Part shown: piece by piece, positions 3,393-42,800 of the stretch | Layout of the letters: each line of letters opens with the position of its first letter | Position numbering within the stretch: position 1 is the stretch's first letter | From: a candidate division CSSED10-310 bacterium | GTDB taxonomy: Bacteria > CSSED10-310 | DNA: 64,000 nucleotides | Assembly (NCBI GenBank): GCA_003558985.1 | Contig: PWNJ01000038.1 | Coordinates: forward strand, 4,990 to 68,989 | Direction of reading: 5' to 3' | Notes under the pieces: model-generated | Told to the model about the DNA's origin: nothing | The model's database searches: none | The model's input: the letters and a program-made list of their open reading frames with translations, nothing else | Made by a program: the position numbers and the translations under genes

Positions 3393-3491
3393 GTTGACAT
3401 GATCAATCTTAAAATGATACGTTTACGCGTCGATCAGGATGCATTAGTGTCTGTTGTAACAATTTTGCGATTATAAAGAGGGTTTTTGACA

Positions 3492-6449
3492 ATGGAAAAT
3501 GAAGCTGTTTGCATTAAAACCGACGGAACGCAAAAGCTCTATGCTGGCCTGCCTTTGCAGACATGGCTGTGGATAGGGCTGTTTTTGTTTGTGATATTTA
3601 CCCGATTTCATCATTTGGGAGACAAACCGTTCCATCATGACGAAAGTCTGTATGGAAAATACATCTGGAATTTTCATGTCGGTCAGGGATACAAATACGA
3701 TCCGATGCAGCATGGGCCGTTTCTGTTCTTCATCAGCCAGCCCATACTGTTTATGTTTGGCGTGTCCAATTATACAATTCGAATGGTTCCGGCTCTGACC
3801 GGTTTTTTTATTACATTTATGTGTTTTTTAATGCGGCGTCGCTTACCGTCCGGAGTTGCCCTGATGACCGGCTGGCTTTTCGCCATCAATGCCGTTGCCA
3901 TGTATTATCAGCGGTTTCTGCTTCATGATCAGTTGTTTACGCTATTTGCGGTGTTGATGATTTTTATACCATTTCTATGGTTTAAAGACCGTAAACAATG
4001 GCAGTATTACGCGTTCTGCGCTGCAACATCAATACTGTATTGTATCAAAGGCAATGCCTTTATTCATTACCTGACCATTTATCTGTTCCTGATAATGTAT
4101 GCCGTCTATTGGCTGTTCATGAAAAAGAAAAAAGTTTCAGAACTGTTTGAAACCTATCCTTTGACAACCAAAACATTCGGTACTGTAACTTTCTGGGGAA
4201 TTGCGTTTGTTATTTATGCATTGGTTAACCAGTTCTGGAGAGGATCCTTCACGAATTGGGATAAAGCATTACACACATACTGGATCGCCATATATGTGCT
4301 ATTTTTCCTTATTGTCGGATGTTTTGTGTATCTGGGTGAAGCCGTGCGGCTTAAACCACGCAAAAAAATACTGGGATTATCACCTGAGTTTTACAAGGAC
4401 AGCCATATCTTTGCTGTTGGAACGGTGATCTTTTTTGCCATTATGATATTCATGTACACCACAATGGGTCAAAACCCCAAAGGGTTCTGGGGCGCAATGT
4501 ATGAATGGTACACATACTGGCTCCATCAGCATACGATTGCACGTATATCCGGACCATTTCACTATTACCATCATCAGATGCTTATCTATGCATTTCTGCC
4601 TCTGGCGGTTACGCTTGTGGCCTTATTCGGACGTGCTCTGCGAAGAAATCCGGCAATCACCGGAGCGTATATTATCGGTTCAACTATCATGATATATGGT
4701 TTTGGGCACTTACGGAACCCATTACCATTTACAAAAGAAAACCTGTTTACCAATCAACACATGGCTATGGCAATAGCGGCTTTTGTTGGTGGAGTTCTGA
4801 TGACGTTTTCGTATATGCGGCAGAAAATGTTTTTGAAATCATTTTATGTCTGGTGGTTTGCTTTTGCCTATATTGTCTATTCATACCTTCAGGAAAAAGT
4901 ACCCTGGCTGGTAATGCATATTATCACTCCGTTGTTTCTTTATGCTGCCTGGGTGTTAATTGATGTTTTCATCGATAAAAAGCATTTCAGCAAATGGGTT
5001 AGAACTTCTGTGATTGTTTTGTTTGGTCTGATGGTCATGTATGAAACGCATACGTCATTTCAGTTAAGTTTTCATAATGAAGCAGATCCGGTTGAACAGA
5101 TGGTGTATGTTCAGACGACATATGAAATACCGATGATCATGGAAGAAATTGAGCGGATAGCATATTGGCAGAATACGCTGCATAAGAAGGAGCTTCCGAT
5201 GGTGGTAACCGGACATGCCACCTGGCCGTTTTACTGGTATTTACGGGATTGGTCCGGTATCAGTTATGGAGCTACTGTCAATCCGGACAGGCATTTGATG
5301 GTAATATGCAATTGGGAGGATCGTCATCGGTTCGCTGAACGTCTGGGTGATCGTTTTATCGTCAGACAATACGGACTGCGAGCCTGGTTCCTTCCAAAAT
5401 TTGCTGATGTTGCCCGGGACGGTAAATTCTGGCACAACGCATGGCGCTGGATGGTGTATCGGGAAAAATTCAATCCAAATCTCTATGGAGCTCAGCATAT
5501 AGCTGTGTTTACCCGTGAGGATGTGTCAATGTTTCAGAAAAGTGTTGATCTGGGTCCGGCGCCTCAACCGACACCGCGCCGCGATCCGCCGCGCCGTGAT
5601 GTGTTGCAGGGAACCAGTCTGAATACATTCGGAACATTCGGCTCTCAAAGGGGAAGATTTAACTCACCAAAAGGAGTCGCAATTGATTCACAAGGCAATA
5701 TATACGTGGCTGATCAGCGGAATAACAGAATACAAAAATTTGATCCTGCAGGTCGTCAGCTTCTGGCATGGGGGTCAAGCGGCAGCGATAACGGCCAGTT
5801 TAATCAGCCGTCGGGGGTTTTCGTCGGTCGGGGTGATCACGTATATGTGACTGATACATGGAATCATCGAATACAGAAATTTGACTCCGAAGGTAAATTT
5901 GTTTTGGCGTTTGGAGACAGCTCGATGCTCTGGGCTCCCAAAGACATTGTTGAGGATGCTGATGGGTTCCTGTATGTCGCCAACACGGGTTTTCATAACA
6001 TTATGAAATTTACCCGGGGTGGCAGCCGCGTATGGTCTGTCGGCCGAAAAGGTACTGGCGCCCGCGAGTTTACCGAACCGGTCGGGCTGGCTCTGGACAG
6101 CCAGGGAAGATTATATGTCGCCGACACTGCCAATAAACGTATCTCGGTGTACGACAGCAACGGGAATCATTTACGGCAGTTTAATGTGTATGGAATGGAA
6201 GAATATTATACGGAACCGTATATTGCCATTGATGAGCAGAACGACAGAATTTATGTCACGGATTCACGCAATAATAACATTCAGGTATTTGACATGAACG
6301 GATCATTCCAGGGTTTCTGGGGCAGGGAAGGGGCCGGCGAGGGTCAATTCAGATTGCCGACCGGTATCACTTATGCTGACGGCAGACTGATCGTAACTGA
6401 AGCACAGAATCACCGTGTTCAGGTATTTGATGCGGCTGACGTGCGCTGA
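3492..6449 (+). CDS. Large polytopic membrane protein: TIGR03663-like GT-C domain (PMT_2-like, DE and HGP motifs) fused to a C-terminal NHL-repeat beta-propeller
   Basis: HHDESLYG and MQHGPF motifs near the N-terminus, and more than 12 hydrophobic segments. From about nt 5615 there are repeated NHL units (GRFNSPKGVAIDSQGNIYVADQRNNRIQKFD, GQFNQPSGVFV...VTDTWNHRIQKFD, etc.). RBS AAGAGGG lies upstream of ATG 3492. Confidence 0.75.
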   Translation: MENEAVCIKTDGTQKLYAGLPLQTWLWIGLFLFVIFTRFHHLGDKPFHHDESLYGKYIWNFHVGQGYKYDPMQHGPFLFFISQPILFMFGVSNYTIRMVPALTGFFITFMCFLMRRRLPSGVALMTGWLFAINAVAMYYQRFLLHDQLFTLFAVLMIFIPFLWFKDRKQWQYYAFCAATSILYCIKGNAFIHYLTIYLFLIMYAVYWLFMKKKKVSELFETYPLTTKTFGTVTFWGIAFVIYALVNQFWRGSFTNWDKALHTYWIAIYVLFFLIVGCFVYLGEAVRLKPRKKILGLSPEFYKDSHIFAVGTVIFFAIMIFMYTTMGQNPKGFWGAMYEWYTYWLHQHTIARISGPFHYYHHQMLIYAFLPLAVTLVALFGRALRRNPAITGAYIIGSTIMIYGFGHLRNPLPFTKENLFTNQHMAMAIAAFVGGVLMTFSYMRQKMFLKSFYVWWFAFAYIVYSYLQEKVPWLVMHIITPLFLYAAWVLIDVFIDKKHFSKWVRTSVIVLFGLMVMYETHTSFQLSFHNEADPVEQMVYVQTTYEIPMIMEEIERIAYWQNTLHKKELPMVVTGHATWPFYWYLRDWSGISYGATVNPDRHLMVICNWEDRHRFAERLGDRFIVRQYGLRAWFLPKFADVARDGKFWHNAWRWMVYREKFNPNLYGAQHIAVFTREDVSMFQKSVDLGPAPQPTPRRDPPRRDVLQGTSLNTFGTFGSQRGRFNSPKGVAIDSQGNIYVADQRNNRIQKFDPAGRQLLAWGSSGSDNGQFNQPSGVFVGRGDHVYVTDTWNHRIQKFDSEGKFVLAFGDSSMLWAPKDIVEDADGFLYVANTGFHNIMKFTRGGSRVWSVGRKGTGAREFTEPVGLALDSQGRLYVADTANKRISVYDSNGNHLRQFNVYGMEEYYTEPYIAIDEQNDRIYVTDSRNNNIQVFDMNGSFQGFWGREGAGEGQFRLPTGITYADGRLIVTEAQNHRVQVFDAADVR

Positions 6450-6520: not shown

Positions 6521-8890
6521 GTGGCAGAAGGTCTTTTACTGGTGTTTGTTTGGTGGTTCTGGATACAGATAATCGGCCTGGTCTCATGGCCGCTGTCGCA
6601 CCGTTTTTTTCGCAGTTTCCCCGATAACGGATATATCCTTGCAAAAGGTCTGGGACTTGTTCTTACAGGCTTTGTCAACTGGATTCTTGTTTCATTAAGA
6701 ATAATGAAATTCTCAGTCCTGTCCGTCATTACCGCCATCGTTATTATTGCCGCGTTGTCATGGTTCCTTAAAAAACAACCGCTAATAGCATTTCTACAGT
6801 TTTTAAAAGATCGAAAAAACATCGTTTTTACCACTGAAACTCTGTTTCTGGTCGCATTTATTGCTTTCGCTATCGTCCGAATGGGTAATCCCGATATCGC
6901 TCAAACAGAAAAGATGCCGGATTATGCATTCCTGACCGGTATTGTTACCAGTGATTATTTTCCGCCACGAGATCCCTGGTTTGCCGACGGCACAATCAAT
7001 TACTTCTATTACGGCCATTATCTGGTCGGAATGCTGACGAAAGTGGCCCGAACAGCCCCGGAATATGGATACAATCTGGGCGTTGCCGTAATCTTTGCTT
7101 TTACTCTGCTGAATGCCGCAGGTGTCGCGTATGCACTGATTAAAAAGCTATGGTTTGGTGTTCTTGGAGGTCTTTTTGTTGCGTTTATTGGCAATCTGGA
7201 TTGTGCGATCCAGTTTTTTTCACATCTGGGTAAATTTTTAAGTGGAGAACGACAAATTTATCCGTTTACCTGGTTTAACTGGTGGATGAGCTCACGCGTT
7301 ATTGTGCGTGAGGGTATTGATATCACAATCAACGAATTCCCATTCTGGAGCTATATACTCGGTGATTTGCACGCACACATGAATGTGGTGCCGATATCAT
7401 TGATTGTGCTGGCGATTATTCTGGAATTCTTCCGTTCATCCGGCCCCGGCCTGGATAGTGTCGGATACGGAAACGACAAATGGTTCCGTCTGGCCGTTGC
7501 TGCAATTGCTCTTGGCGCTATCCCCGCCGCCAATACATGGGATACCCCCACCTATTATGCGCTGATGGTTGCCGGACTCCTTCTGGGACGACAGTTTCTG
7601 GTCACCGGACATCTATTAAAGGCAACAAACAAAGAGGCCATATCCGTGGCCGGTGTTGTTCTGTCGCCGATTTCCGAATTTTTTAGCAGAATCAGTCGCT
7701 CCATCAGACACGGCTGGAAAAACCAGGGTTGGAGCGAATTGTTCCAATCATGGTTGGGTATTGCTGGTGTAATTATCCTGTCTTTGGTTGTGTATTTGCC
7801 ATTTCATGCAAATTTTCATCCGGCTGGAACTCAGGGACTCAGAGTGGTCAATCCGGTTCAATATACAATTGCAGGCGATTTTCTGACGATATATGGTTTT
7901 TTCTTTTACTGTATGTTTCCATTCGCTGTTGCGCTTTTATGGCCACGGTTCAGCAAACTGAATAGTCGCCTGAAACCGTTGGTCTCAATAGCTCTGGTCG
8001 CTATGTTTTTTATACTGATGCTGGCGTTTAATCGCTTTATGATACCCTTTTGCCTGTATTTTCTTGCGTTCGTACTGGCGGTTCCGTTGCAGAAAAATGA
8101 TCCTGAAATAAAGGAAAAGTTTTTTGCTCTGGCGATGTGTGTCATGGTTTTGCTGATATTGCTGGGGTGCGAGTTTTTCTATATCAAGGATGCATACGGC
8201 CGAACTCTCGAACGACAAAATACTATTTTCAAGTTTTATTACCAGGCATGGATATTTTGCGGTATTGCATCAGCATATGCGGTGTACTGGTTCAGAAAAC
8301 ACGCCAGACCGGTGTTATACTATGCATGGGAACCCGGATTTCGTATTCTGCTTGTCTGCACTTTGATGTTCCCTTTTATCGGGTCTGCAGTAAAAACAAA
8401 CCATTTCCGCTCCTTCACCAATCCATCCCGACATGCCAAACCTACTCTGGATGGTATGTTTTATATGACATGGCAACACAAAGGTGATTATGAAGCAATA
8501 ATGTGGCTTAGAAATAATGCTGATCCGGAACAACGCGTGCTGGAAGCGACCGGTCCGGCGTTTTCGCATTATGGACGAATCTCTGCCGGCACCGGTATGG
8601 CTACCATTCTGGGGTGGGGAAATCATCAGAATATATGGCGTGACGGGTCATGGAAAATGGTTAATGAACGCAGCGGACATGTCAGGCAGGCCTATACATC
8701 AACTGATCCGAATCAAATCAGGAGCATACTGGATAAATACCGTATAGATTATGTGTTTTACGGACGACTGGAACGTGAGCAGTATTCGAACTCATCACCG
8801 GATAACTTCGCGTTTCTGGAAAAGGTGATGGAAACAAGGGATAGTGATAACAGAACGGTGTATCTGTTCCGGTATGTTCCGGAGAATTAG
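6521..8890 (+). CDS. DUF2298 / Chlor_Arch_YYY (TIGR03662-like) integral membrane protein
   Basis: FPPRDPWFADGTINYFYYGHY motif. It is highly hydrophobic at 789 aa. GTG start with RBS GGAGGA. The C-terminal third is paralogous to the C-terminal part of the 2012-aa protein (FKFYYQAWIF...PTLDGMFYM...). Confidence 0.75.
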   Translation: MAEGLLLVFVWWFWIQIIGLVSWPLSHRFFRSFPDNGYILAKGLGLVLTGFVNWILVSLRIMKFSVLSVITAIVIIAALSWFLKKQPLIAFLQFLKDRKNIVFTTETLFLVAFIAFAIVRMGNPDIAQTEKMPDYAFLTGIVTSDYFPPRDPWFADGTINYFYYGHYLVGMLTKVARTAPEYGYNLGVAVIFAFTLLNAAGVAYALIKKLWFGVLGGLFVAFIGNLDCAIQFFSHLGKFLSGERQIYPFTWFNWWMSSRVIVREGIDITINEFPFWSYILGDLHAHMNVVPISLIVLAIILEFFRSSGPGLDSVGYGNDKWFRLAVAAIALGAIPAANTWDTPTYYALMVAGLLLGRQFLVTGHLLKATNKEAISVAGVVLSPISEFFSRISRSIRHGWKNQGWSELFQSWLGIAGVIILSLVVYLPFHANFHPAGTQGLRVVNPVQYTIAGDFLTIYGFFFYCMFPFAVALLWPRFSKLNSRLKPLVSIALVAMFFILMLAFNRFMIPFCLYFLAFVLAVPLQKNDPEIKEKFFALAMCVMVLLILLGCEFFYIKDAYGRTLERQNTIFKFYYQAWIFCGIASAYAVYWFRKHARPVLYYAWEPGFRILLVCTLMFPFIGSAVKTNHFRSFTNPSRHAKPTLDGMFYMTWQHKGDYEAIMWLRNNADPEQRVLEATGPAFSHYGRISAGTGMATILGWGNHQNIWRDGSWKMVNERSGHVRQAYTSTDPNQIRSILDKYRIDYVFYGRLEREQYSNSSPDNFAFLEKVMETRDSDNRTVYLFRYVPEN

Positions 8891-8907: not shown

Positions 8908-11900
8908 ATGGGTTCAAAAGATCAATGGGCTGAATTGACCGTTAAAAAACGGCGTAACTGGCTCCTGTTTTTCCTGTTTTTGATAGGTCTGGGATTGCGT
9001 CTGCACGGGTATGACTGGGGCATGCCGCATCATTTTCATCCTGATGAACGGCAGATCGTTGATTTTCAGGCTCCCAAAGTCAATCTGGATGTTTTGAATC
9101 CATCCAAATCAGTACCATTGCTGGTGCGGGGCCAATGGACTGAACTTAACACCATGCTGGACGGCATGAACACCAAATTTTTTGCCTACGGCCCACTGCC
9201 GATGTACACACTGGTGATAACGGTTGAAATAAGTGACTGGATAAATTCCAACGTCAGATCATTTGCACAGAATCGGCAAAACATGTCACCGGAAACCCGT
9301 CAGAAAATCAATGAATGGTTCCCACGCGTTAAAACTCCAGGCGGCCGGGTTCTTACCGGGCGAATAATATCAGCGATATTTTCGGCCCTAACCATTCTGG
9401 TCATATTCAAAATCGGCAAATATCTGTACAATGCTAAAATCGGATATCTGGCTGCTGCATTGTTTACCTTTACAGTCCTGTCAATTCAACAGGCACATTT
9501 TCTTGTTGTTGACGGCCCACAAACAACTCTGGTGGCTCTGGCAATGTTTTTTCTTGTCCGGACGGCTATGGGTGAAAGACGGCGGGATTACTATCTGGCC
9601 GGTATTTTTATCGGTCTGGCAATGGCAACCAAATTCAGCACCGCCCCCATTGCATTGTCATATATTCTGGCACATGTTCTGTCTATGACACTTGGCCGTC
9701 GCCGTGACAAGGCTGACTGGTTTCACTGGATAGCAGGTGGTATCGTCGCAATTGTTGCCATGACAATTGTTATGCCATTCTGGATTCTGGATTCAGAAAC
9801 ATTTTTCAGGGATATCCAGGCACAAAGAAATATGGTCACCGGTGTCGCTGATCTGCCTTATACCATTCAGTTTGAAGGCACAATGCCGATGGTTTATATG
9901 ATAAAAAACATGATTTTGTGGTCACTTGGGCTCCCGCTGGGTCTGGCCGCATATATTGGACTCATTGCCGCCATCAGACGAATCTGGAAAAAACCCGAGG
10001 ATATCGGCAATATTGTTATCCTGTCGTTTGTGATTCCTCTGCTGTATCTGAACGGAACATTTCATGCCAAGTTTTTGCGTTATACATTGGTAACCATTCC
10101 GTTTTTTGTCATATTTGCCGCTCGCTGGCTTCATGGAATGAAATCCTGGACAGCGCGTCCGGTCGCACGGACCGTTACCGCAGCCGTCCTGCTGGGCACA
10201 ATCGGCTGGGCTCTGGCTTTTCAGACCATTTATACATCCCCCCATACACGTCTGCAGGCTTCCGATTGGGTGTATGAAAATATCCCGGCTGGAAAAAACA
10301 TCGTGCTCGAAAGCAGTTGGGATGATTCCATGCCGGTTACTACCGACAGGGGCAATGCCGGAAGATATACATCACGGCAGTTGGGTATCTACAGAGAACC
10401 CGATGATCATCGCCGCGCAGCAGCCATGGCTGAGATTCTGGAGTGGGGTGATGTGGTCATTCTGTCATCACGAAAACATTACGGTTCTGTTACAAGAGTG
10501 CCCAATCGATATCCGATCTCAACCAACTTTTACAAATTGTTGTTTCACGAAAGATTGGGTTATCAGCATGTAAAGACATTTGATAATCCACCATCACTTG
10601 GCAGATTGCGTTTTAGAGATGATCTGGCTGATGAAAGTTTTCGTGTATATGAACATCCGCGTGTCGATATTTTTGTTAAAGAAAGCTGTTTGACTGCCGA
10701 TCAGATTCAAGCGCTGCTGATCGCTCCCCCGCCCGAAGTTGCTGATATGACTTACAGGGAGCTTATGACGCGGCGGCCGCCAACCGAAATTGGCCCTCAT
10801 GTCAACTACCCAGTTATTCGGTGGTTAATCGCGCTTTATATATTCGGACTGATCAGCATTCCGTTTGCCTTTGTTATCTTCAGCAAATTCGATCACAAGG
10901 GATACCCGTTTACCAAAATCATCGGTCTGCTGGTAACAGCATATCTGGCGTGGCTGTTGCCCAGTATTGAATGGTTTCCGTTTTCACGGACATTGATTAT
11001 AGCTGTGATTATTGTGGTCGCATGGATCAGTCATACGCTATATCGCTATCACAAGAAAGCAATTCACACACATTTTAAACAGCGATGGTGGAGTATTGCT
11101 GGATATGAAATTCTGTTTTTAGTTGTGTTTTGTATCTTCGGTCTACTGAAAAGCTATAATCCGAACATTTATTGGAGTGAAAGCTCAATGGATTTCGGGT
11201 TCCTGAACGCTGTGGTGCGGGCAGAGACCTTTCCACCCGAAGACCCGTGGATTCAGGGACAGGGTATAAACTACTACTATTATGGCCAGTATCTGGCCGG
11301 ATATATGACAAAATTGACCGGGGTTGAACCTCACTATGGCTATAATCTGTTTTTTATAACAATACCAGCGCTGGTAGCGCTAAGTATTGCGGCTATTCTA
11401 CTGGCGCTGACCCGGCGTGTCTGGGTCGCTCTGATCGGTGTCCTGTTTTCTATTTTTATAGGTAATCTGGACGGCTTGACTCAAATGGCCAATATATGGG
11501 TACGTAATGCCAGAGGAACCGATATGTATCGGTTAGCGACCGGATTTCAGACAACAATCGGCTGGGTTTTTAATCTTGGTCGGCAAGATCCGCACTTTCG
11601 ATTTTTCAGATCAGCGCACGAATTGATTCGACCAACCGTTCATGAGTTTCCTTTCTGGAGTTATAATTTCATGGATTTGCACGCGCATACCGTGGCAACC
11701 ATGTTGACGGCGTTTTTTCTGGCGCTGCAGCTTGTTTTGCTTCGCAACTGCAAAGGCGGTCTTCGGCTATTTGGAGAAACCCGTACTCAGCAAACGGCAA
11801 CGATGGGAATTTTGTTTATCTCATATGGCGCGATGATTTCAACCAACTCGTGGGACCTGCCAACTCAGGCCATTATACTTCTGCTGGTGTCTGTCTGGGT

Positions 11901-14900
11901 TATGATCTTTGCCGGAAGACAGCCCAAATACCGTATGGAAACGGCTGAACGTATTCCCGATGACCGCACACCAGACAGTATTGAAACTCAACCTTCTGAG
12001 AGTGCAGACGAAGAGGTGGCTGACAATGGAACACACCCGGACAAAAGCAGTGTGAAGCCAAATTCAGACCAAAACGAAGCCGTAGAATCAGCAGACGAAT
12101 CCGGCACCAGTGATGACACGCGTAGGTCAATTCCACATGAGGTCAATGATGTTTCTGATGCAGAATCAAAGATGCAAGCTGATGCTGAACCACTGGCTGA
12201 CAGGAATGGCGATACAGAGCAGGATGATGTGGTTTCGGAAGAGGTTTCGAAAAAAACGGATATACCGGAAGCGCCGGAAACCAATGAAACGGACATGGAA
12301 TTTGAAACCCGGGTAGAAACCGACAAGGCTGATGAATCCGACTCAGACATTGAAGGAGCAGTAAACACCGACACTGAATTGGACAGGAAAGCAACTGCAA
12401 CAACGGATGTTCAAAAGACTGACTCCGACTCCGATTCAATGGAACAGTTGAATGAACAATCAGAAACTGAAATCGGTGTTTCAGACGATTCGAATACGAT
12501 ATTGTCCGATGATGATGTATTGGATAGGGCAGATGATATTGAAACACAAGATACGCCTGATGATAGTACACTCAAACCAAATGAGTCTGAAAAAGATACT
12601 GACAAGATAAACATCAGTTTAGTGGCCAGGATTCGTGACGGGTGTACACGATTTGTCAGGTGGTTAATACCTGAGTTGTGTGATTCCGGCTTTTTCCTGT
12701 GGCGATTGCTGTGGCCGGTAGCTTTGGTAATTATCGGCGGAATGACGTTGCATCTGCCGTATCTGAATCATTTCTACAGGCATGAAATGGGCTTGGGAAC
12801 ATTGTGGAAATACAGGCAGACAACCAATCTGGATGGTTTCCTGACAATGTTCGGCTTTTTCCTGTTCATTTTTATCACTCAGTTCATTCGCTGGTGGTGG
12901 GATGTACAGAAAGACCGGGGCCGATCACCCATGCAGGCATTGTGTCTGCTGATCGGTGTCATCACGGTTCTGATAGTTGTCTGGTACGGATTTCTGAATG
13001 TCCCGGAACGAGGAGTTGATTATTCTGTATTACTGATAAGTATATTCCTGATTTTACTGATACTTTCCATACTGATTGAGGGGTATCCATCACTGAATGA
13101 AGCATTTCCACTGCTTTTGGCGTTGTGTGCCGTGGGTATTACTGCCGGATGCGAATTGGTATTTGTTCGTGATTTTTATCAGGGAGGTGAACATCGCCGG
13201 TTTAACACGGTTTTCAAGTTCTATATTCAGGCATGGTTTATGTTCGCGATTGCTTCCGCATATTTACTGGCGGTAAGGTCACGAATACGTGTTCGCTTCT
13301 ATAAACACAATCTGACTAAAAATCTGGTTCGGACAAGCGCCTGGGTATGGAATCTGGTGTTTATTTTTCTGCTGGCCGGCACACTAATATTCACTTTCAA
13401 GGGAGTTCATGCAAGGCATCACAACCGCGATTTCCAACAGGGATGGCGACTTGCTGGTCGAACGCCAACTGCAGACATGCCACTCACACTGGATGGTTGG
13501 GCATACATGAAACTTGACTATCGGCCGGTAAACGAATACCGGGCAATACACTGGTTGCAGAATAATATAAAAGGTACTCCGGTTATTCTGGAAGCTACCG
13601 GAGCTGACTATTTGTATCAGTATGGCAATATCTCGGGTAATACCGGATTGCCAACAGTACTGGGCTGGTGGAGTCATGTCGATCAACGGGAATATCTGGT
13701 TCGCCAGGGGCGCGGCGAAGGTCAGCGAGACCGAAAGATTGATACCGGGAGAATCAGACGCGACATTGAAACCATATACAATAGTGTGGATATTCCCAAA
13801 GTTCTGTCACTGCTGGGTCAATACAGGGTGCGGTATATATTTGTCGGGCCGACGGAACGGGAAGAATATAATCCGGTTGGTTTGCAGAAATTCAAACAAA
13901 TGAGTACATTCCTGACTCCTGTTTATACCAATCCGGATGTCGTGATTTATCGAGTCAATGATTACGGTCACAGTGTTGATCTGGCGGAGACAATTCAGGA
14001 TAACCAGGCATTGATACGGTTGCGGGAAGAGATGGAAGAGCGGGAGGAGCAGGAACGGATTGCCCGGCTTGAGGCAGAAAGGGAGCGAGAACGCCGAATG
14101 ATGCAGCAGCCGGCACGCGCTTTGACTGCCGGCGGCAGAGGTCGAGCAAGAGGCATGTTCGAAGAACCGCGATCCATGACAATCGCACCCGATGGAAGCT
14201 TTTATGTCGCTGATTTCAGAAATCACCGCGTTCAGAAATTTGCTCCGGATGGTTCATGGCAGAATATGTGGGGCAGTTCAGGCAATATGCCGGGCGAGTT
14301 TAATGATATCTGCGACGTGGCTGCCAACTCAACCCATGTGTTTGTGCTGGATACGTTTAATAATAGAATTCAGAAATATACTCATGATGGACAGTTCGTG
14401 CAGCTTATTATTGCCCAGGGACAAAGTGTGTCTCATCCAAGGGGTATTGCCGTTGATGAAGAGTATATCTTTATGGCCGACACCGGAAATTCAAGAATTA
14501 TTCGAATGAATCTTGCTGGCCGCGAAACACGAGTTATCGGAAGAGCCGGCCGGGGACAGCTTCAATTTACAAACCCGGTCGGTCTGACCATCCATAATAA
14601 CGAAGTGTATATCGCAGATACCGGCAACAGACGTATTCAGGTAATGAGTCGTGACGGTGAGTTTTTGCGCGAGTATCCGACTGAGGGATGGGAAGCGGAG
14701 GTATATAACGAACCGTATCTGGCAGTGGCTGAAGACGGCACGATATATTATTCTGATCCATCTCGAGGAACGGTGCGCATGATTGATCAGCAGGGACAAC
14801 CTGTGGGACGCTTGACCGCGGCAGCTGATGGTCGAAGACTGTCACTACCGATGGGACTTGCTATTGATAATAACGGAAATGTGTATGTTGTTGACGCTGG

Positions 14901-14946
14901 CAATCACGCGGTCATGCTGCTGAAACGTGATTCCGGAATTCAATAG
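8908..14946 (+). CDS. Giant (2012 aa) fusion membrane protein: TIGR03663-like + DUF2298/YYY domain (split by an acidic insert) + coiled coil + C-terminal NHL beta-propeller
   Basis: N-terminal FHPDERQ (DE motif). FPPEDPWIQGQGINYYYYGQY at about residue 770. D/E/S/T-rich low-complexity insert at residues ~1010-1237. Resumed DUF2298 C-terminal homology (FNTVFKFYIQAW..., LTLDGWAYM). LIRLREEMEEREEQERIARLEAERERERR coiled coil. NHL repeats (FYVADFRNHRVQKF, VLDTFNNRIQKY, ADTGNSRIIRM, ADTGNRRIQVM). Confidence 0.75.
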   Translation: MGSKDQWAELTVKKRRNWLLFFLFLIGLGLRLHGYDWGMPHHFHPDERQIVDFQAPKVNLDVLNPSKSVPLLVRGQWTELNTMLDGMNTKFFAYGPLPMYTLVITVEISDWINSNVRSFAQNRQNMSPETRQKINEWFPRVKTPGGRVLTGRIISAIFSALTILVIFKIGKYLYNAKIGYLAAALFTFTVLSIQQAHFLVVDGPQTTLVALAMFFLVRTAMGERRRDYYLAGIFIGLAMATKFSTAPIALSYILAHVLSMTLGRRRDKADWFHWIAGGIVAIVAMTIVMPFWILDSETFFRDIQAQRNMVTGVADLPYTIQFEGTMPMVYMIKNMILWSLGLPLGLAAYIGLIAAIRRIWKKPEDIGNIVILSFVIPLLYLNGTFHAKFLRYTLVTIPFFVIFAARWLHGMKSWTARPVARTVTAAVLLGTIGWALAFQTIYTSPHTRLQASDWVYENIPAGKNIVLESSWDDSMPVTTDRGNAGRYTSRQLGIYREPDDHRRAAAMAEILEWGDVVILSSRKHYGSVTRVPNRYPISTNFYKLLFHERLGYQHVKTFDNPPSLGRLRFRDDLADESFRVYEHPRVDIFVKESCLTADQIQALLIAPPPEVADMTYRELMTRRPPTEIGPHVNYPVIRWLIALYIFGLISIPFAFVIFSKFDHKGYPFTKIIGLLVTAYLAWLLPSIEWFPFSRTLIIAVIIVVAWISHTLYRYHKKAIHTHFKQRWWSIAGYEILFLVVFCIFGLLKSYNPNIYWSESSMDFGFLNAVVRAETFPPEDPWIQGQGINYYYYGQYLAGYMTKLTGVEPHYGYNLFFITIPALVALSIAAILLALTRRVWVALIGVLFSIFIGNLDGLTQMANIWVRNARGTDMYRLATGFQTTIGWVFNLGRQDPHFRFFRSAHELIRPTVHEFPFWSYNFMDLHAHTVATMLTAFFLALQLVLLRNCKGGLRLFGETRTQQTATMGILFISYGAMISTNSWDLPTQAIILLLVSVWVMIFAGRQPKYRMETAERIPDDRTPDSIETQPSESADEEVADNGTHPDKSSVKPNSDQNEAVESADESGTSDDTRRSIPHEVNDVSDAESKMQADAEPLADRNGDTEQDDVVSEEVSKKTDIPEAPETNETDMEFETRVETDKADESDSDIEGAVNTDTELDRKATATTDVQKTDSDSDSMEQLNEQSETEIGVSDDSNTILSDDDVLDRADDIETQDTPDDSTLKPNESEKDTDKINISLVARIRDGCTRFVRWLIPELCDSGFFLWRLLWPVALVIIGGMTLHLPYLNHFYRHEMGLGTLWKYRQTTNLDGFLTMFGFFLFIFITQFIRWWWDVQKDRGRSPMQALCLLIGVITVLIVVWYGFLNVPERGVDYSVLLISIFLILLILSILIEGYPSLNEAFPLLLALCAVGITAGCELVFVRDFYQGGEHRRFNTVFKFYIQAWFMFAIASAYLLAVRSRIRVRFYKHNLTKNLVRTSAWVWNLVFIFLLAGTLIFTFKGVHARHHNRDFQQGWRLAGRTPTADMPLTLDGWAYMKLDYRPVNEYRAIHWLQNNIKGTPVILEATGADYLYQYGNISGNTGLPTVLGWWSHVDQREYLVRQGRGEGQRDRKIDTGRIRRDIETIYNSVDIPKVLSLLGQYRVRYIFVGPTEREEYNPVGLQKFKQMSTFLTPVYTNPDVVIYRVNDYGHSVDLAETIQDNQALIRLREEMEEREEQERIARLEAERERERRMMQQPARALTAGGRGRARGMFEEPRSMTIAPDGSFYVADFRNHRVQKFAPDGSWQNMWGSSGNMPGEFNDICDVAANSTHVFVLDTFNNRIQKYTHDGQFVQLIIAQGQSVSHPRGIAVDEEYIFMADTGNSRIIRMNLAGRETRVIGRAGRGQLQFTNPVGLTIHNNEVYIADTGNRRIQVMSRDGEFLREYPTEGWEAEVYNEPYLAVAEDGTIYYSDPSRGTVRMIDQQGQPVGRLTAAADGRRLSLPMGLAIDNNGNVYVVDAGNHAVMLLKRDSGIQ

Positions 14947-14970: not shown

Positions 14971-15435
14971 TCACATCCCTCCGGCGTCGCCGGGCAACCG
15001 CCGGATAAAATCGCCATCAATTGACTGTTTATCCGTGGAACTCGTAACATCAATCAAATCAGACGGCCCTGACACATGCATCACATCGTCCGGTGACCCT
15101 TCAACCATATTTAATCGGATCGTAACGGTGCTGTATGGTCGCAGATTGACTTCTGACCGAACCAATGTTTTCATTTCCGAGCGCTCAAATTTTAAAGTAT
15201 ATTCGCCGACTGGCAGAACCGGGAAACGAAATCGACCGCGCTGATCGGTAACAACATTGCGCTCCCCCATAAGATTCGGACTGGTCACGGTGATCGTAAC
15301 ATCGGATAATGGTGTGTCATCTTCTGAGCGAACAAGGCCGGTTATGCGTCCATGATTCGGTGATGCATCCACCAAATAAACAAAGGTGAAAATAAACAAA
15401 ACTATTACACTTATTTGGATTATCTGTCTGTTCAA
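14971..15435 (-). CDS. Small secreted protein with a carboxypeptidase-regulatory-like (CarbopepD_reg) domain; possibly a truncated N-terminal fragment of a TonB-dependent receptor
   Basis: Signal/TM segment, then ITGLVRSEDDTPLSDVTITV...GEYTL (CarbopepD_reg-like), ending ...LIDVTSS...RRLPGDAGGM, which resembles the start of a plug domain. The ORF stops 25 nt from the 3' end of the giant gene. Confidence 0.45.
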   Translation of the reverse strand: MNRQIIQISVIVLFIFTFVYLVDASPNHGRITGLVRSEDDTPLSDVTITVTSPNLMGERNVVTDQRGRFRFPVLPVGEYTLKFERSEMKTLVRSEVNLRPYSTVTIRLNMVEGSPDDVMHVSGPSDLIDVTSSTDKQSIDGDFIRRLPGDAGGM

Positions 15436-15587: not shown

Positions 15588-18536
15588 TCACGCAGCAGAA
15601 TCAACCTTCATAACATGTATTATTGGTTCAGGCCATTCCGTGTCGGATTCCCTGTATATTGTTTTTATCGTGACATTGGGGAAAAGCTCTTTTATCTGCT
15701 GCATGATATACATATTACGGTTGTAGTGATCCAGCACAAAAGCGATTCCCTTGTCCGGTGAATGCTCCTTGTCACGAATAGCCGTGAGATTATCCTGGAT
15801 TTCTTCGTTAGTAATAAAATCCGGTTCCCGGCCGCCAGTAATGGCAAAAACATCACCTGGAATTCGGTAACAAATAAACTTGGGAGTGTCCAGAAAATGG
15901 CTGTTGCTGACATACACATGATAATCTGCCGATAATTCCAGCGCTTTGTATCCCACTTGAGTATGCAACGGAGCGTAACCGAATTGGGCATGGGGACTTC
16001 GGGCCAGAACATGAAAATACAAATGATATTCGCTGATGCCGATCCAGATCAATCCCGCTGTTAGCCAAAGAATTGCGGGAATGCTATTCAATGCTGGGAG
16101 TTTTGTTCTGGTCAGCAATTGAACGGAGAGAACAAGTCCCAATGCAATCATGATGGCCAGCGGTACGGTAAACTGTATCAGGCGAGTTGCGTCCGGCTCC
16201 GAAAGTAGTCCGGGCAAAAGTCCAAAAATAGCTGCTATAAAAACCCAGAAACAGTTTCGTTTCCCAAAGTGTCGCAGTAAATATGCCAGGCCAATCATCA
16301 TAAAAAAACCGGATATTGCGCTAATAATGGGTATGGATGGCTCAAAAAAATTTCCTACGTCAGCACGAAAATGAAAAATCTGAAGATGCCTCAGAATTGA
16401 ATCCCAAAGCGGCTGCCATGAGCCGCTAAACCGGACCAGATTACCGACAAACAGATGACCGGTACGCTCCAGAAACATTTGCGGATTGTTAATGGCGTAC
16501 AAAAACAATGGGAAAAACATCAACCATGCAAATACTTGCATTACCAGAAGCCCGTGCCAGTTTTTGCGCATAAATTTCGGTGTGGTTATCCATGTATGAA
16601 TACCGATAAGAATCATCATGAACGGGACTCCGCGAAATGAAAAATATGTATGAAGTCCCATACCGATGCTTATGCCGGAAGCCGCATAGTAAAGAAGACG
16701 TTTCCCGACTGAATGACTGTCAACAGCACGGTAAAAAAACCATCCGGTCATAACCATGAATAATGGTGCCAGAACTGCTCGATATCCAGTTCGCGCATAG
16801 GTGAGATTCCAGGCCATTACGGCATAAACAGCCGATGCCGCGAACGCAACATGCCGGTTCCATAAATCCCGGCATAAAAAAAACAGAAACACAACCGTCA
16901 GAAATCCGGCGGCTACTCCAGGTAAATACAACGAATAAACTGACGTTCCGAACAGTCTGAAACTCAGCGCTATCAAGTAAAAATAAAATGTTTCCTTGCC
17001 CCAGGCCTCCTCAGTAAACGGCGTATAGGGCTCACCATCAAGTATTCGATACGCATAGATAGCGTTCCAGGCCGCGTCATTGTTGATACCGGTTGGAACA
17101 GACTGAAGTCTGTAAAAGCGAAGGCCGATTGCTGCAATGAAAACAATAGAAACCAATACAAACGACACTGTTTTTGATCGTTCCGATGTAAGCGTGACAG
17201 ATGAAGGAAAAAGTGTTGAATTCCGAAAACTGGCCCACAAAAGAACTGCGCCGGTGATCAGCAAAACTGCTCCTGAACGAATCATGGGAGATGAAATCCG
17301 AAGCAGAATCATTCCGACCGCTACGCACAGCATTCCGATGATTATTAACCACCGACACAAAGACGGATGGTCTTGAAGATATTTTAACAAACCGGGTTTT
17401 CCCTGTTTTTGTCTGTATTTGAGATACATATATATCCAGAAGATAATAATACCAATTGCCCCAATATCTATTGGCAATCGAACAGCAAGCGGGATGTCGG
17501 GAATAAAACCTTCCTGACGTTGGACTTTCGGTAGTGGTGGAGGTAAAGGAAACTGGATAATCCGGTTATTGATTGTGTCACTGATAAACAGGCGATCGTC
17601 CTGAGTCAGGGCAATACCTGTCGGTCCGTTAAATGCATTTGCACTTGCTCCGTACTTGCCAAACCGGCTATACAGTTTGCCATCGTTTGTGTATACGATA
17701 ACCTTATGGTTGGCAGGTGATGTCACATAAATCATTCCACTATCGTGTATAGCAATATATGCTTCAGTAAACTCTCTGCCAGTCCAGTCATTCACCGGAA
17801 TAATGCGAAGAGTTTGACCATTTTGGTCCAGAACTTTGATTCGATTGTTTCCGGTGTCAGCAACATATACATTGTTGTCCGGACCAATCACAATTCCTAC
17901 AGGATTGAAAAAATGATCCGGCTCCGGCTGACCACTACCCCATGTGGCAGTCAGTTGTCCTTCCGAGTCAAAAACCATGACGGTATGGTGGGACGTGTTA
18001 GTCACATAAACCCGATCCGAAGCGTCAACGGCGATTCCTCGCGGAGCTGAAAATTGTGCTTTTGCCCAGGTCGCTTCCCATGTACCTGATTCATTACAGA
18101 AACGCTGAACACGATGATTCCAGGTATCTGCCACGTAAATATTCCTGTCGGAATCCATTGTTGCGGCTGCTGGATCTTCAAACTGACCGGGATTCTTGCC
18201 GCGGCGTCCCCAGACTCCCAAAGCAGTTCCGTCCGAAGTCAATTCCTGAATTCGGTAGTTTCGGAAATCACTGATAAGAATAGTGTCTGATGGTGTCAGA
18301 GTGACCTGTCGTGGTTCGCGAAACATTCCGGGATCGTCACCCAATCCACCGAAATGCAGATAAGCCGGGTTTTCAACAAATGAATCGGCAGAAACAAGCC
18401 CATATCCACCGGAAAATATTGCCAGAGTTGCAGAAATGACAACGATAATGCTCATGAAAACCAGAGCAAGTCGGTTAGTCTTTTGAATCACCGACATCAT
18501 AATTTTCAGTATCAAGCCTGTCGATTGTCTCTTCAA
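15588..18536 (-). CDS. Large membrane protein: N-terminal TM anchor + NHL-repeat beta-propeller + C-terminal GT-C (GT39/PMT_2/ArnT-like) polytopic glycosyltransferase domain
   Basis: NHL units (RNYRIQEL, NIYVADTWNHRVQRF, ADTGNNRIKVL, DTINNRIIQF) in residues ~70-330, followed by about 12 hydrophobic helices with a GT39-like loop (GINNDAAWNAIYAYRILDGEPYTP). An alternative start near 18500 would reduce the overlap with the upstream GT2 gene. Confidence 0.7.
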   Translation of the reverse strand: MKRQSTGLILKIMMSVIQKTNRLALVFMSIIVVISATLAIFSGGYGLVSADSFVENPAYLHFGGLGDDPGMFREPRQVTLTPSDTILISDFRNYRIQELTSDGTALGVWGRRGKNPGQFEDPAAATMDSDRNIYVADTWNHRVQRFCNESGTWEATWAKAQFSAPRGIAVDASDRVYVTNTSHHTVMVFDSEGQLTATWGSGQPEPDHFFNPVGIVIGPDNNVYVADTGNNRIKVLDQNGQTLRIIPVNDWTGREFTEAYIAIHDSGMIYVTSPANHKVIVYTNDGKLYSRFGKYGASANAFNGPTGIALTQDDRLFISDTINNRIIQFPLPPPLPKVQRQEGFIPDIPLAVRLPIDIGAIGIIIFWIYMYLKYRQKQGKPGLLKYLQDHPSLCRWLIIIGMLCVAVGMILLRISSPMIRSGAVLLITGAVLLWASFRNSTLFPSSVTLTSERSKTVSFVLVSIVFIAAIGLRFYRLQSVPTGINNDAAWNAIYAYRILDGEPYTPFTEEAWGKETFYFYLIALSFRLFGTSVYSLYLPGVAAGFLTVVFLFFLCRDLWNRHVAFAASAVYAVMAWNLTYARTGYRAVLAPLFMVMTGWFFYRAVDSHSVGKRLLYYAASGISIGMGLHTYFSFRGVPFMMILIGIHTWITTPKFMRKNWHGLLVMQVFAWLMFFPLFLYAINNPQMFLERTGHLFVGNLVRFSGSWQPLWDSILRHLQIFHFRADVGNFFEPSIPIISAISGFFMMIGLAYLLRHFGKRNCFWVFIAAIFGLLPGLLSEPDATRLIQFTVPLAIMIALGLVLSVQLLTRTKLPALNSIPAILWLTAGLIWIGISEYHLYFHVLARSPHAQFGYAPLHTQVGYKALELSADYHVYVSNSHFLDTPKFICYRIPGDVFAITGGREPDFITNEEIQDNLTAIRDKEHSPDKGIAFVLDHYNRNMYIMQQIKELFPNVTIKTIYRESDTEWPEPIIHVMKVDSAA

Positions 18537-19437
18537 GAAGATGGCGATTGACCCGTATAAGATCCGTTACTACACCAAACAAAACCAAAGAAAAACCCAG
18601 ACTCATAAACACAGAGGCAATCACGAGCGACTGAACTTTTCCGGTGGGATCCGGAAAATTGATCAGATAATAAATCAAAAACCGAAAAAACAGCAGTCCT
18701 CCTACGCCCAGACTGATTAGTCCTGAACGATTAAAAAGCTTTTCGGGACTGTAAAGCGCCCATATACGAATTATTGTGGCAGCCTGTCGTCGAATATAAT
18801 ACCAGTTACTGTGAAACAAGTGGCTCGGGCGAGTCGGTGGATTGGTGCGGACTTCAATCGAAGCCACACGCAACCCGCTTTGAGCTGCCTGGATAATTGT
18901 TTCAATCGTATAAGTAAAATCTGAAAAAACTTTCAACCGTCTGAGCGCACGTCTTGAATATGCCCGAAACCCACTTGCAACATCCCGTACATCAGCTCCG
19001 GTCAGCCATTTGATAATCTGGCTGCCCATACGTTGCAACCGTTTTTTCATCGGTGAAAAATGTCGAATGCTCTCAATAGGACGACAACCCACCACTACAT
19101 CTGCCTGATTTTCAAGAATCGGTTGCACAAGAGCATGAATGCATTCACCGACATATTGATTGTCTCCATCCGTGTTGACAAGAATGTCCGCTTGCATTCT
19201 GGATGCTTCTGCCAAACCCCGGGCAAATGCACGAGCCAGTCCCTGGTTATAAGGCAATGACACAACCCGGTCCACACCCAGATTTCGGGCAACTTCGGCT
19301 GTGCTGTCAGTTGAACCATCGTCGATAACCAATATCTCTATCCGGTCAATGCCGGGAATGGATTTTGGCAAATCCGAAAATGTCATCGGCAGTGTCTCGG
19401 CTTCATTAAAACAAGGTATTTGAATCACAAGTTTCAT
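18475..19437 (-). CDS. GT2 polyprenol-phosphate sugar synthase (Dpm1/GtrB/ArnC-like)
   Basis: MKLVIQIPCFNEAETLP...ILVIDDGSTDSTAEVA...DGDNQY contains the GT2 DxD/DGD motifs. The C-terminal hydrophobic helices are typical of Dpm1/GtrB-type enzymes. Confidence 0.75.
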   Translation of the reverse strand: MKLVIQIPCFNEAETLPMTFSDLPKSIPGIDRIEILVIDDGSTDSTAEVARNLGVDRVVSLPYNQGLARAFARGLAEASRMQADILVNTDGDNQYVGECIHALVQPILENQADVVVGCRPIESIRHFSPMKKRLQRMGSQIIKWLTGADVRDVASGFRAYSRRALRRLKVFSDFTYTIETIIQAAQSGLRVASIEVRTNPPTRPSHLFHSNWYYIRRQAATIIRIWALYSPEKLFNRSGLISLGVGGLLFFRFLIYYLINFPDPTGKVQSLVIASVFMSLGFSLVLFGVVTDLIRVNRHLLEETIDRLDTENYDVGDSKD

Positions 19438-31871: not shown

Positions 31872-34469
31872 TTAAGGTGCCCATCCAAAAGTAAGATACG
31901 TGATTTCACCGACAATGTAATTCTCATCAATGTAACCTTCATTAAAGGCAGCGCACCAGAAACGTGCTCCATGATAGGCAGAATCAACATAGGGCCATTT
32001 AAATTCCAGAATTGTGAACGCTTGAGTCATTGTGGCCATATACAGACTTTTGCGATAATCAAGGTCAGGTGTCCAACTGGGCCAGAACCAAAAACTGCCC
32101 TCAACCTCTAAAAGTATAAACTGATCTATATACAATGGCGGACAGGTGTTAAATAGCCGTAATACCAACTTGAAGTTGTCGTTTGGTCTGAATGTGTCGC
32201 CCGAAAGGATTAAACGCGAATCACTCAGACAAGTCGGTGTAGCCGTCGGTAAAGGTGTGGGTGTGTTCACTGGATGATATCCGTAATGATAACCCAAATC
32301 GACAATACCGATATCACCTCTGTGGTCTGTTCGTGTTGTGAATTGATCCAGCCCAAGATCAACTGCATCCTGATTACCGGCATTAACGCAGGGACTTTGA
32401 ACACTCTGACCTGCGCCAAGTTGGGATAAGTAATAGATACCGTTGGGTCCTACGGCGAAATAGGGATCCAGACTTATGTCACCTTCACCGGGAACAGCAA
32501 TACCCCCATAGTCACCATTCGGGTTGTTCCAGACATTATTGTGAAACAAATTTGGTTTAGATGAAGCATCAAATATGAATATACCTTCACCTGTCTCCTG
32601 ATTGACGATAATGTTATTGGCTATCTCACCTTCAGAATTCATAAAATAAAGGCCACCACCGTAGTGTTCTACTGAATTGTTCGAAAACGTGTTGTTTATA
32701 AAAACAGGATTGCTGTTTGTTGAAAATGCTCCTCCACCATAACCCGACGAATTGTTTCTGATCAGATTATTGAAAATATAAGGCGCTGCGCCATCTGAGA
32801 TATATATTCCACCACCATCCAGGAAGGAATTGTTTTCCGCAATGACATTGTGCATGATGACAGGATTGCTCCCTGTGTTCCGAACTACGATTGCTCCACC
32901 ACGATGAGCTTGATTACTGCTTATTATGCAACCCTCGATAGTCGGACTGCTACCATTGCTGACAGTTATTGCTCCACCCTGAACATGATTGCTTGAATAG
33001 CCATAACCATTTATAACAGTAAAATTCTGAAGCCTTGAACTATATGATTCCCCATTTGAGAATGTAACAACACTACCATTGCTGGCACCGTTTATTATGG
33101 TTCGTGAAGCCCCGGATTCCGATTTTACCGTGATACGTTTTCCTGAAAAGTTTAACAGCTCATTATAAGTTCCCGCACCGACAAGAACCGTGTCTCCATC
33201 CCTTGCGGCATTGATGCCATGTTGAATATACGGGTAGTCTCCGGGAATACGGATTATTTGGGGTAAAGGTGTGTTGGTTGGTGTCGCGGTTGGTACTGTT
33301 GGAGTGCTGGTGGGGGTGGGTGTGTTTGTTGGAGTAAATGTCGCAGTGGGTGTTGGTGTGTTAGTGGGTCTTGGAGTGGGCGTAAAGGTTGCAGTGGGAG
33401 TTGGGGTTGCGGTTGGCAAATCTTTGATCTGGTAGTGAAATCCCATATCCACAATGCCGGAATCCTCTATCTGATCGGTTCGGGTTGTTCGGCCTGATAA
33501 TGGAAAGGATGAAGCAAGTCCTTCACCGGCATTAACACAGATACTTGTGACTTCCTGACCGGCAGCAACCTGACTCAGATAATGAGAGCCAAACGGGCCG
33601 GTTACAAATATTGGATCAGCCGTCAGACATCCATGCCCGGGAGAAGCGTTTCCGCCAAAGTTTCCGTGAGCATTGTTCCAGACATTCGTATGACGCACAT
33701 CAATGATGCCGGCAGAGTCCAATGCGACAATGCCTTTACCATTAGGACTGTTGGTTATAATACTGTTTTTAACCAGAACACCATGATCACTTCCAACAGT
33801 GATAACTCCTTGCGCTGATGGAACTGAATTGTTGTCAAATGTGCACCCGATAATTTGCGCTTCAGCCATGTCAACATATACCACACCTGATGTGTTTGCA
33901 TGATTTGATATGAAAATACAATTGAATATCTCTGGATTACTATCATCTTTTACAAATATTGCAGATCCATATTGCCCGGTGTTTCCATAAAAAATCGAAT
34001 GATGAATATCGGGAGATGCGTCAATCACATATATTCCTGCACCCCGCTGACCTCCGCTTAACCGAATCGTACAATCTATAATTGTTGGCGAAGAGTTTCT
34101 TATTGTAATTCCGCCTCCGGAAAAATTGGGCCCTCCCGAACCAAGACCTTGCTGGATGGTAATATTCTCTAAAACCGAATTCAGGGATTCTCCGGAATTG
34201 AACGTTACAAGACAGCCAGACGTGTTTCCGTCAAGAATTGTGGGATTGTGCAATGACTCACCCCTGACCGTTATTGCTTTACCAAGAAAGTTTATAAACT
34301 CATAGTATAATCCGGGAGAAACCAATACAGTATCACCATCAACAGACGCGTTAATTGCTGACTGAATTGTCCCATAATCCATTGGAACCCTTCGAATTGT
34401 TGATTCTACAGGGATAGAAAAAACAGCTATCAACAGCAGCAAACCAAACAGACTTTTTTGAGTAAACAT
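31872..34469 (-). CDS. Secreted protein with two tandem right-handed parallel beta-helix modules joined by Pro/Thr-rich linkers, plus an uncharacterised C-terminal domain
   Basis: Signal peptide. Module 1 ([32 protein letters not shown]...) and module 2 ([33 protein letters not shown]...) are clearly paralogous. The linker is [49 protein letters not shown], with a second [14 protein letters not shown] stretch. Confidence 0.7.
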
Positions 34470-42787: not shown

Positions 42788-42800
42788 CCGGGATGTGATT

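Follow-up and report, generated by a model that had tools for sequence, protein, structure and literature searches.

How should a bacterial gene be understood that seems to repeat, in a single chain, the two genes lying directly upstream of it? We addressed this question for a 64,000-nucleotide (nt) stretch of contig PWNJ01000038.1 from a candidate phylum CSSED10-310 bacterium (hereafter, the window), in which positions 8908-14946 of the forward strand form a single ATG-started open reading frame (ORF) of 2012 amino acids (aa). A sequence-only reading had taken this ORF for a fused paralogue of its upstream neighbors, gene 1 (TIGR03663 family) and gene 2 (YYY/DUF2298 family), with the YYY part acting as partner or scaffold of a glycosyltransferase unit. 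Our analysis leads to a different answer: the 2012-aa protein combines two divergent GT-C units in series, each with a core and a globular domain, followed by a tethered NHL propeller. The best explanation, which we consider probable, is that the PMT_2/GT39-like and YYY GT-C modules, together with the NHL propeller, serve periplasmic glycosylation from lipid-linked sugars. The protein is laid out as follows.

8908..10242 (aa 1-445), + strand: module 1 transmembrane core, a PMT_2-type GT-C glycosyltransferase with an invariant HPDE (H44 P45 D46 E47)
10243..10797 (aa ~446-630), + strand: module 1 C-terminal alpha/beta globular domain, presumably periplasmic
10804..11916 (aa 633-1003), + strand: module 2, first half of the YYY (TIGR03662/DUF2298) domain, with SESSMD, FPPEDPW, INYYYYG, HEFPFW, DLHAH and NSWDLP
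11917..12693 (aa ~1004-1262), + strand: acidic non-conserved insert, a presumably cytoplasmic loop that splits the YYY halves
12694..13977 (aa 1263-1690), + strand: module 2, second half of the YYY domain, transmembrane helices and an AglB-like C-terminal globular domain, with RRFNTVFKFY, LTLDG, LEATG, GWWSHVDQRE and VGPTERE
13978..14118 (aa ~1691-1737), + strand: Glu/Arg-rich linker, probably helical, whose charge is conserved among homologues and whose sequence is not
14119..14946 (aa 1738-2012), + strand: NHL-repeat beta-propeller (Pfam NHL, E 1.8e-22), then the stop codon

Each module is recognized by established profiles. Within module 1, Pfam reports PMT_2 (E 1.6e-16) and PMT at aa ~146-292; the module passes the gathering cutoff of PF13231 (PMT_2) and also shows the GT-C fold. 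The NCBIfam model TIGR03662 (Chlor_Arch_YYY) matches two stretches that flank the insert (432.9 bits, cutoff 300.25), and DUF2298 (PF10060, cutoff 27.8 bits) is found with E 2.7e-85; the motifs FPPEDPW, INYYYYG, HEFPFW, DLHAH, and RRFNTVFKFY start at residues 775, 787, 912, 923, and 1430, respectively. The NHL region reaches 78.6 bits against a Pfam cutoff of 20, and a strict pattern finds five motif-bearing blades at aa 1765-2002.

Could such a layout be an artefact, in which a frameshift or chimeric join at ~11.9-12.7 kb linked two genes? The low-complexity acidic segment does fall exactly between two conserved halves. However, this segment is flanked by the halves of a single YYY domain, which are contiguous in gene 2, and in nine aligned homologues from separate assemblies the insert lies in frame at the same position, with both of its flanks strongly conserved. 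There is likewise no composition break, as GC content is continuous across the gene, and no tandem repeats were found in the acidic segment (11917-12693). The ORF is preceded by an AAGGAG ribosome-binding site, graded strong, 6 nt 5' of the ATG, and it starts 17 nt after the stop codon of gene 2; promoter and terminator scans gave the same counts as shuffled sequence and are uninformative on operon boundaries. NCBI holds an identical protein (P0001), as well as at least 12 full-length homologues (P0002-P0013) with 44-81% identity, 1776-2129 aa and the same architecture. Since these homologues stem from independent assemblies and show the same layout, the ORF is a genuine intact gene and not a chimera, and we give the artefact almost no credence.

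The insert and the linker set this protein apart from other PMT_2-YYY fusions, to which the CSSED10-310 clade adds an acidic loop within YYY and, ahead of the NHL propeller, a helix rich in Glu and Arg. The insert comprises ~260 residues, with 29% D+E and a net charge of -50; in the nine homologues it measures 171-286 aa, with net charges from -19 to -74, and is acidic throughout without being conserved in sequence. Seen only in the CSSED10-310 clade and absent from the KSB3 fusions, this loop is probably cytoplasmic and has no evident function. As for the linker, the sequence-only reading had described a coiled coil between YYY and NHL. A Glu/Arg-rich and probably helical segment of ~40 residues is indeed found there; by eye, however, it lacks a sustained hydrophobic heptad.

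The relationship of module 2 to gene 2 is clear. BLASTP aligns aa 636-986 with residues 8-344 of gene 2 (33% identity, E 4e-50) and aa 1271-1655 with residues 414-756 (30% identity, E 3e-33). The two blocks hold every motif on which the parallel with gene 2 had been proposed, namely FPP(R/E)DPW, INY(F/Y)YYG, FKFY.QAW, TLDG, and LEATG, so that the paralogy extends over polar conserved motifs and is not limited to hydrophobic stretches. The NHL propeller likewise resembles that of gene 1, as had been noted (36% identity over 271 aa, E 7e-44, BLASTP), and the order GT-C, YYY, NHL is the same as in genes 1 and 2.

What kind of protein YYY might be is indicated by its predicted structure and its conserved residues. 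The predicted model of gene 2 is structurally similar to solved GT-C enzymes, with comparison values of 18.2 for Pmt4, 17.9 for STT3B, 17.4 for Pmt2, 16.9 for ALG12, 14.8 for ArnT, 14.4 for AftA, 13.8 for AglB, and 12.6 for PglB. In addition, profiles of YYY and module 1 appear as remote homologues (hhalign, 91.8%, E 7e-7). As modeled, YYY is a GT-C-fold family with an oligosaccharyltransferase (OST)-like C-terminal domain. With STT3, AglB, and PglB it shares the fold of this domain and a Trp-containing motif in it; it differs from them in that the 2012-aa protein has no STT3 Pfam match and in that WWDYG is not present, the corresponding motif being GWWSHVD in the 2012-aa protein and GWGNH in gene 2, with G-W..H alone conserved across YYY. 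Among 77 solo YYY proteins, E130, D151, Y161, E272, H284, R565, T568, K571, R717, and E751 are invariant, R259 and W699 are nearly so, and at least 90% of these proteins keep D134, D282, H286, E551, E675, and H702. The motifs bearing the invariant residues are present in the 2012-aa protein, and this pattern fits an enzyme better than a scaffold. YYY may be a polyprenyl-phosphate-sugar-dependent transferase, as suggested by the invariant Asp, Glu, His, Arg, and Lys residues together with neighboring GT2 genes.

Module 1 stands in a different relationship to gene 1. BLASTP finds no match between aa 1-630 and gene 1, and the TIGR03663 hidden Markov model finds none in aa 1-630 even at E<=10, while gene 1 itself scores 249.8 bits (curated cutoff 126.25 bits). 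When profiles of 121 sequences per domain were compared by hhalign, the two domains aligned with 98.5% probability (E 2.3e-15, 13% identity, 409 columns), and FHPDER of module 1 was set opposite FHHDES of gene 1. The PMT_2 domain of the window's third GT-C gene (15588-18536, - strand) served as a control; its distance to each of the two domains proved about the same (E 2.4e-13 and 2.2e-11). Module 1 is therefore, as judged from these profiles, a remote relative of gene 1 at the level of the GT-C superfamily only, outside the TIGR03663 family. As such, the proposed parallel between the N-terminal third and gene 1 survives as remote homology with an aligned first-loop motif, and not as family membership. 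We also considered module 1 as a close paralogue of the third GT-C gene and rejected this, given a BLASTP match of just E 9e-4 over 102 aa and three PMT_2-like domains that are about equidistant in hhalign.

The comparison point for gene 1 is Agl23 of Haloarcula hispanica, with which module 1 has in common a GT-C superfamily membrane domain and the alignable first-loop acidic motif. Compared with module 1, gene 1 carries a large insertion, and it is gene 1, not the 2012-aa protein, that is the TIGR03663/Agl23 member in the window. Residues H44, P45, D46, and E47 of module 1 are invariant in 66 fusion proteins and make up its first-loop acidic motif, which is putatively catalytic. A search of the PDB with the module 1 sequence found no relative.

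How widespread is this architecture? All of the 120 best matches of the 2012-aa protein combine an N-type PMT_2 module with YYY; an NHL propeller follows in 34 of them, and in 18 the YYY domain is present twice, for some of these together with TPR repeats in place of NHL. There are hundreds of PMT_2-YYY fusions, spread over Chloroflexota, KSB3/Moduliflexus, and other phyla, under the database names YYY or DUF2298 domain-containing protein, glycosyltransferase family 39 protein, and phospholipid carrier-dependent glycosyltransferase. The HPDE and YYY motifs are invariant in this family, and the 2012-aa protein shares them. The TIGR03662 description, too, speaks of a long class that carries additional N-terminal sequence. 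The 2012-aa gene is therefore a further member of a catalogued, functionally unstudied, and widespread fusion architecture.

The picture is different for TIGR03663. Its 120 best homologues include 64 with an NHL propeller and none with DUF2298. A true TIGR03663-YYY fusion was found in Ca. Magnetoovum (Nitrospirota), in which P0221/P0361 (1160 aa) joins TIGR03663 (277 bits) to YYY (289 bits) at L024 8001-12171, with an overlapping GT2 gene directly after it. When P0221 was run in an exhaustive HMMER search over 1.84 billion representatives, no second such fusion appeared among the best 150 matches, the others covering one half only; true TIGR03663-YYY fusions are nearly absent. In neighborhoods of seven solo YYY genes sampled from other phyla, a PMT_2 or PMT_2-YYY fusion gene lies within 6 kb in five, GT2 in two, and LPG_synthase_TM in three, whereas none of three sampled TIGR03663 neighborhoods (two archaeal, one KSB3) holds a YYY gene. 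A general rule of TIGR03663-YYY neighborhood was accordingly dropped, with 0/3 neighborhoods and one fusion cluster among the best 150. The idea that the fusion signals cooperation of the two families thus holds for PMT_2-like modules with YYY (120/120 matches, 5/7 neighborhoods) and has little general support for TIGR03663 with DUF2298 (0/120, 0/3, one fusion cluster).

Beside solo YYY genes, LPG_synthase_TM (PF03706) and PMT_2 genes recur (L022, L025, and L026, including Devosia and Solirubrobacteraceae). The Devosia solo-YYY cluster also holds GLF and UbiA genes, neighbors that suggest furanose or other lipid-linked sugar pathways.

How old the paralogy is was addressed by a neighbor-joining analysis of 250 YYY domains. 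Fusion-type domains make up all of the 25 nearest neighbors of the fusion's YYY, and solo-type domains all of those of gene 2. The fusion's YYY and gene 2 are separated by a distance of 0.64; the YYY of P0221 is nearest to the solo, gene-2 type. Therefore, on these sequence relationships, the fusion and genes 1+2 are old paralogues that stand side by side rather than the outcome of a recent local duplication and fusion, and the duplication predates the phylum.

These results bear on the proposal from which we started, in which YYY is a non-catalytic partner or scaffold and the large gene a fused duplicate of genes 1+2. It has in its favor the matching domain order, the clear paralogy of the NHL and YYY parts, and the conserved adjacency of the genes. 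Yet module 1 lies outside TIGR03663, the two YYY copies come from separate, old subfamilies (the fusion's YYY clustering with the fusion-type of other phyla, gene 2 with the solo-type), and fusions from KSB3, Chloroflexota, and other phyla have the same N-type module. A passive role for YYY is further at odds with its GT-C enzyme fold and its invariant acidic, His, Arg, and Lys residues. Altogether, we abandon the fused-duplicate view and regard the scaffold proposal as very improbable.

The surroundings of the gene form a cluster with the following further members.

3486..6449, + strand: gene 1, TIGR03663 (Agl23 family) membrane domain and NHL propeller (247-250 bits against a cutoff of 126)
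6521..8890, + strand: gene 2, a solo YYY/DUF2298 protein of GT-C fold (complete YYY domain, 534 bits)
15588..18536, - strand: convergent gene with an N-terminal membrane anchor, NHL propeller, and third PMT_2-type GT-C (Pfam NHL and PMT_2; weak ArnT-family match)
18475..19437, - strand: GT2 resembling polyprenyl-phosphate sugar synthases (Glycos_transf_2, E 1e-24)

A database homologue of gene 1 (P0241, 985 aa) is 100% identical and starts at ATG 3492, and NCBI names the TIGR03663 family "flippase activity-associated protein Agl23". In total, the cluster holds five GT-C-type membrane domains, counting the Agl23-family domain of gene 1, and three NHL propellers. Nine related loci (L001-L009), all from candidate phylum CSSED10-310, keep gene 1, gene 2, and the fusion in head-to-tail order (48-78% identity); six of them (L001-L003 and L006-L008) also keep the convergent NHL-PMT_2 gene (41-52% identity) and the adjoining GT2 (58-72%). 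Remoter loci belong to Auribacterota, Chlamydiota, and KSB3/Moduliflexus, and the KSB3 fusions have neither the insert nor the NHL propeller nor the neighboring cluster genes. In some relatives, an extra PMT_2-like gene that is not in the window sits between the fusion and the NHL-PMT_2 gene (~20.3-22.2 kb in the locus coordinates of L001-L003), with a weak match to the third GT-C (26-28% identity). Between the fusion gene and the convergent GT-C of the window lies a small CarboxypepD_reg-domain protein (14971-15435, - strand), which has no match of at least 70 bits in the related loci.

Elsewhere in the window, LPG_synthase_TM (42795-44078) and a BacA/UppP undecaprenyl-diphosphatase (44960-45787) lie ~28 kb downstream of the cluster, not adjacent to it, and are possibly related to lipid-carrier metabolism. 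The minus strand encodes an 865-aa right-handed beta-helix protein (31872-34469), and the plus strand a 701-aa ORF without Pfam match (37997-40102). The GC content of the window falls from ~0.46 (1-26 kb) to 0.36-0.42 (30-64 kb), and searches for tRNA, rRNA, and Rfam families in the 64 kb gave no match.

On which side of the membrane would the conserved parts lie? Topology was deduced by analogy with GT-C enzymes and from the gene 2 model, in which we counted helices starting at the C-terminal domain. In AglB and PglB, this domain is extracytoplasmic. On this basis, the conserved loops E130-Y163, R259-H286, and R565-K571 are predicted to lie outside the cytoplasm, and the insert-bearing loop would be cytoplasmic, with which GRQPKYR, just after the preceding helix, is consistent. 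The NHL propeller of the 2012-aa protein is probably periplasmic, because it follows an outside-facing domain with no intervening helix.

In the mechanism that we propose, the GT2 would load a sugar onto polyprenyl phosphate at the cytoplasmic face, and the lipid-linked sugar would cross to the periplasmic face, possibly with the Agl23-family product of gene 1 as its translocator. The GT-C modules would then transfer the sugar, or sugars, from the lipid carrier to an acceptor bound by the NHL propeller. The two covalently linked modules may work on one acceptor in succession, or form an obligate pair like Pmt1-Pmt2 or EmbA-EmbB. Accessory domains of the NHL and TPR kinds mostly bind proteins, a hint that the acceptors may be proteins. 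Domain identities, folds, conservation, synteny, and the age of the paralogy are shown by the analysis; the type of donor, the location of the propeller, catalysis by both modules, and the nature of the acceptor are what we infer within this scheme.

A second way to divide the labor is that the PMT_2-like module (module 1 in the fusion, TIGR03663 in gene 1) translocates the polyprenyl-phosphate-linked donor and the adjacent YYY is the sole transferase. Purified H. hispanica Agl23, the only characterized TIGR03663 member, is described as a flippase for dolichyl-phosphate (Dol-P)-hexose and flips lipid-linked glycan in liposomes (PMC11182771). PMT_2-like and YYY modules are moreover paired 1:1 in hundreds of fusions, the one true TIGR03663-YYY fusion directly precedes a GT2 gene, and apart from gene 1 the cluster genes scanned with Pfam include no flippase-type gene (no GtrA-, MATE-, or Wzx-type). 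Against this, module 1 is not in the TIGR03663 family, it retains the canonical first-loop GT-C acidic motif and many invariant polar residues, and its closest structural relatives are all transferases. Solo YYY genes elsewhere often adjoin a separate flippase-like LPG_synthase_TM gene, and the flippase role of Agl23 itself rests on two studies. We therefore see this division as unlikely, though it is the main rival reading. A bolder form of it is slightly more doubtful still: YYY would be an unrecognized GT-C family that is active only when paired with a dedicated PMT_2-like or Agl23-like translocator, so that the fusion would be a coupled flippase-transferase in which NHL or TPR domains select protein acceptors. 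If this were true, bacteria and archaea would possess a protein glycosylation system that is new and runs parallel to PMT/TMTC and OST.

Several points weigh against the tandem-transferase reading that we prefer. For the nearest characterized relative of gene 1, a flippase rather than a transferase role has been reported, and the PMT_2-like modules in the system may not be catalytic. The fold evidence for module 2 comes from its paralogue gene 2 (30-33% identity), not from the 2012-aa protein's own YYY, and a search of the PDB by sequence with the YYY profile detected no solved structure. The best NCBIfam matches of the GT2 (AglJ, dolichyl-phosphate hexose transferase, PpgS, ArnC, and PgfS) are all below their cutoffs. 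The topology stems from helix counting and analogy, and the reading does not account for the acidic insert. Finally, a literature search by name for DUF2298/YYY (also TIGR03662 and PF10060) and TIGR03663 found no functional study and no biochemical data for any DUF2298 member.

The tandem-transferase reading can be set beside known glycosylation systems. Sequence identity to Pmt1/2/4, ArnT, and other GT-C_A enzymes is 8-17%. Unlike Pmt proteins, the 2012-aa protein has no MIR domain, its accessory domain being an NHL propeller, and its two cores lie in one chain, in contrast to the non-covalent Pmt1-Pmt2 dimer. A three-component scheme of GT2 synthase, flippase, and GT-C has been described (PMC11127046), and, like such systems (Gtr, ArnC/ArnT, GT136), the cluster has a synthase-like GT2, GT-C proteins, and a candidate flippase (gene 1, by analogy with Agl23). 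Whereas three-component systems have one GT-C, however, the cluster has four GT-C-fold modules in addition to the Agl23-family domain of gene 1, with three NHL propellers and two YYY domains.

DUF2298/YYY is a large and widespread membrane family, and the 2012-aa gene offers an entry point to its function. The finding is also relevant to the role of Agl23-type proteins (flippase, transferase, or both), one of which shares a conserved operon-like arrangement with YYY proteins here. The GT-C fold, the invariant charged residues, and the nearly constant linkage to a PMT_2-like module, through fusion or neighborhood and often with GT2, lead to a testable hypothesis, namely that these proteins may form a multi-enzyme periplasmic glycosylation machine in the uncultured phylum CSSED10-310 and beyond.

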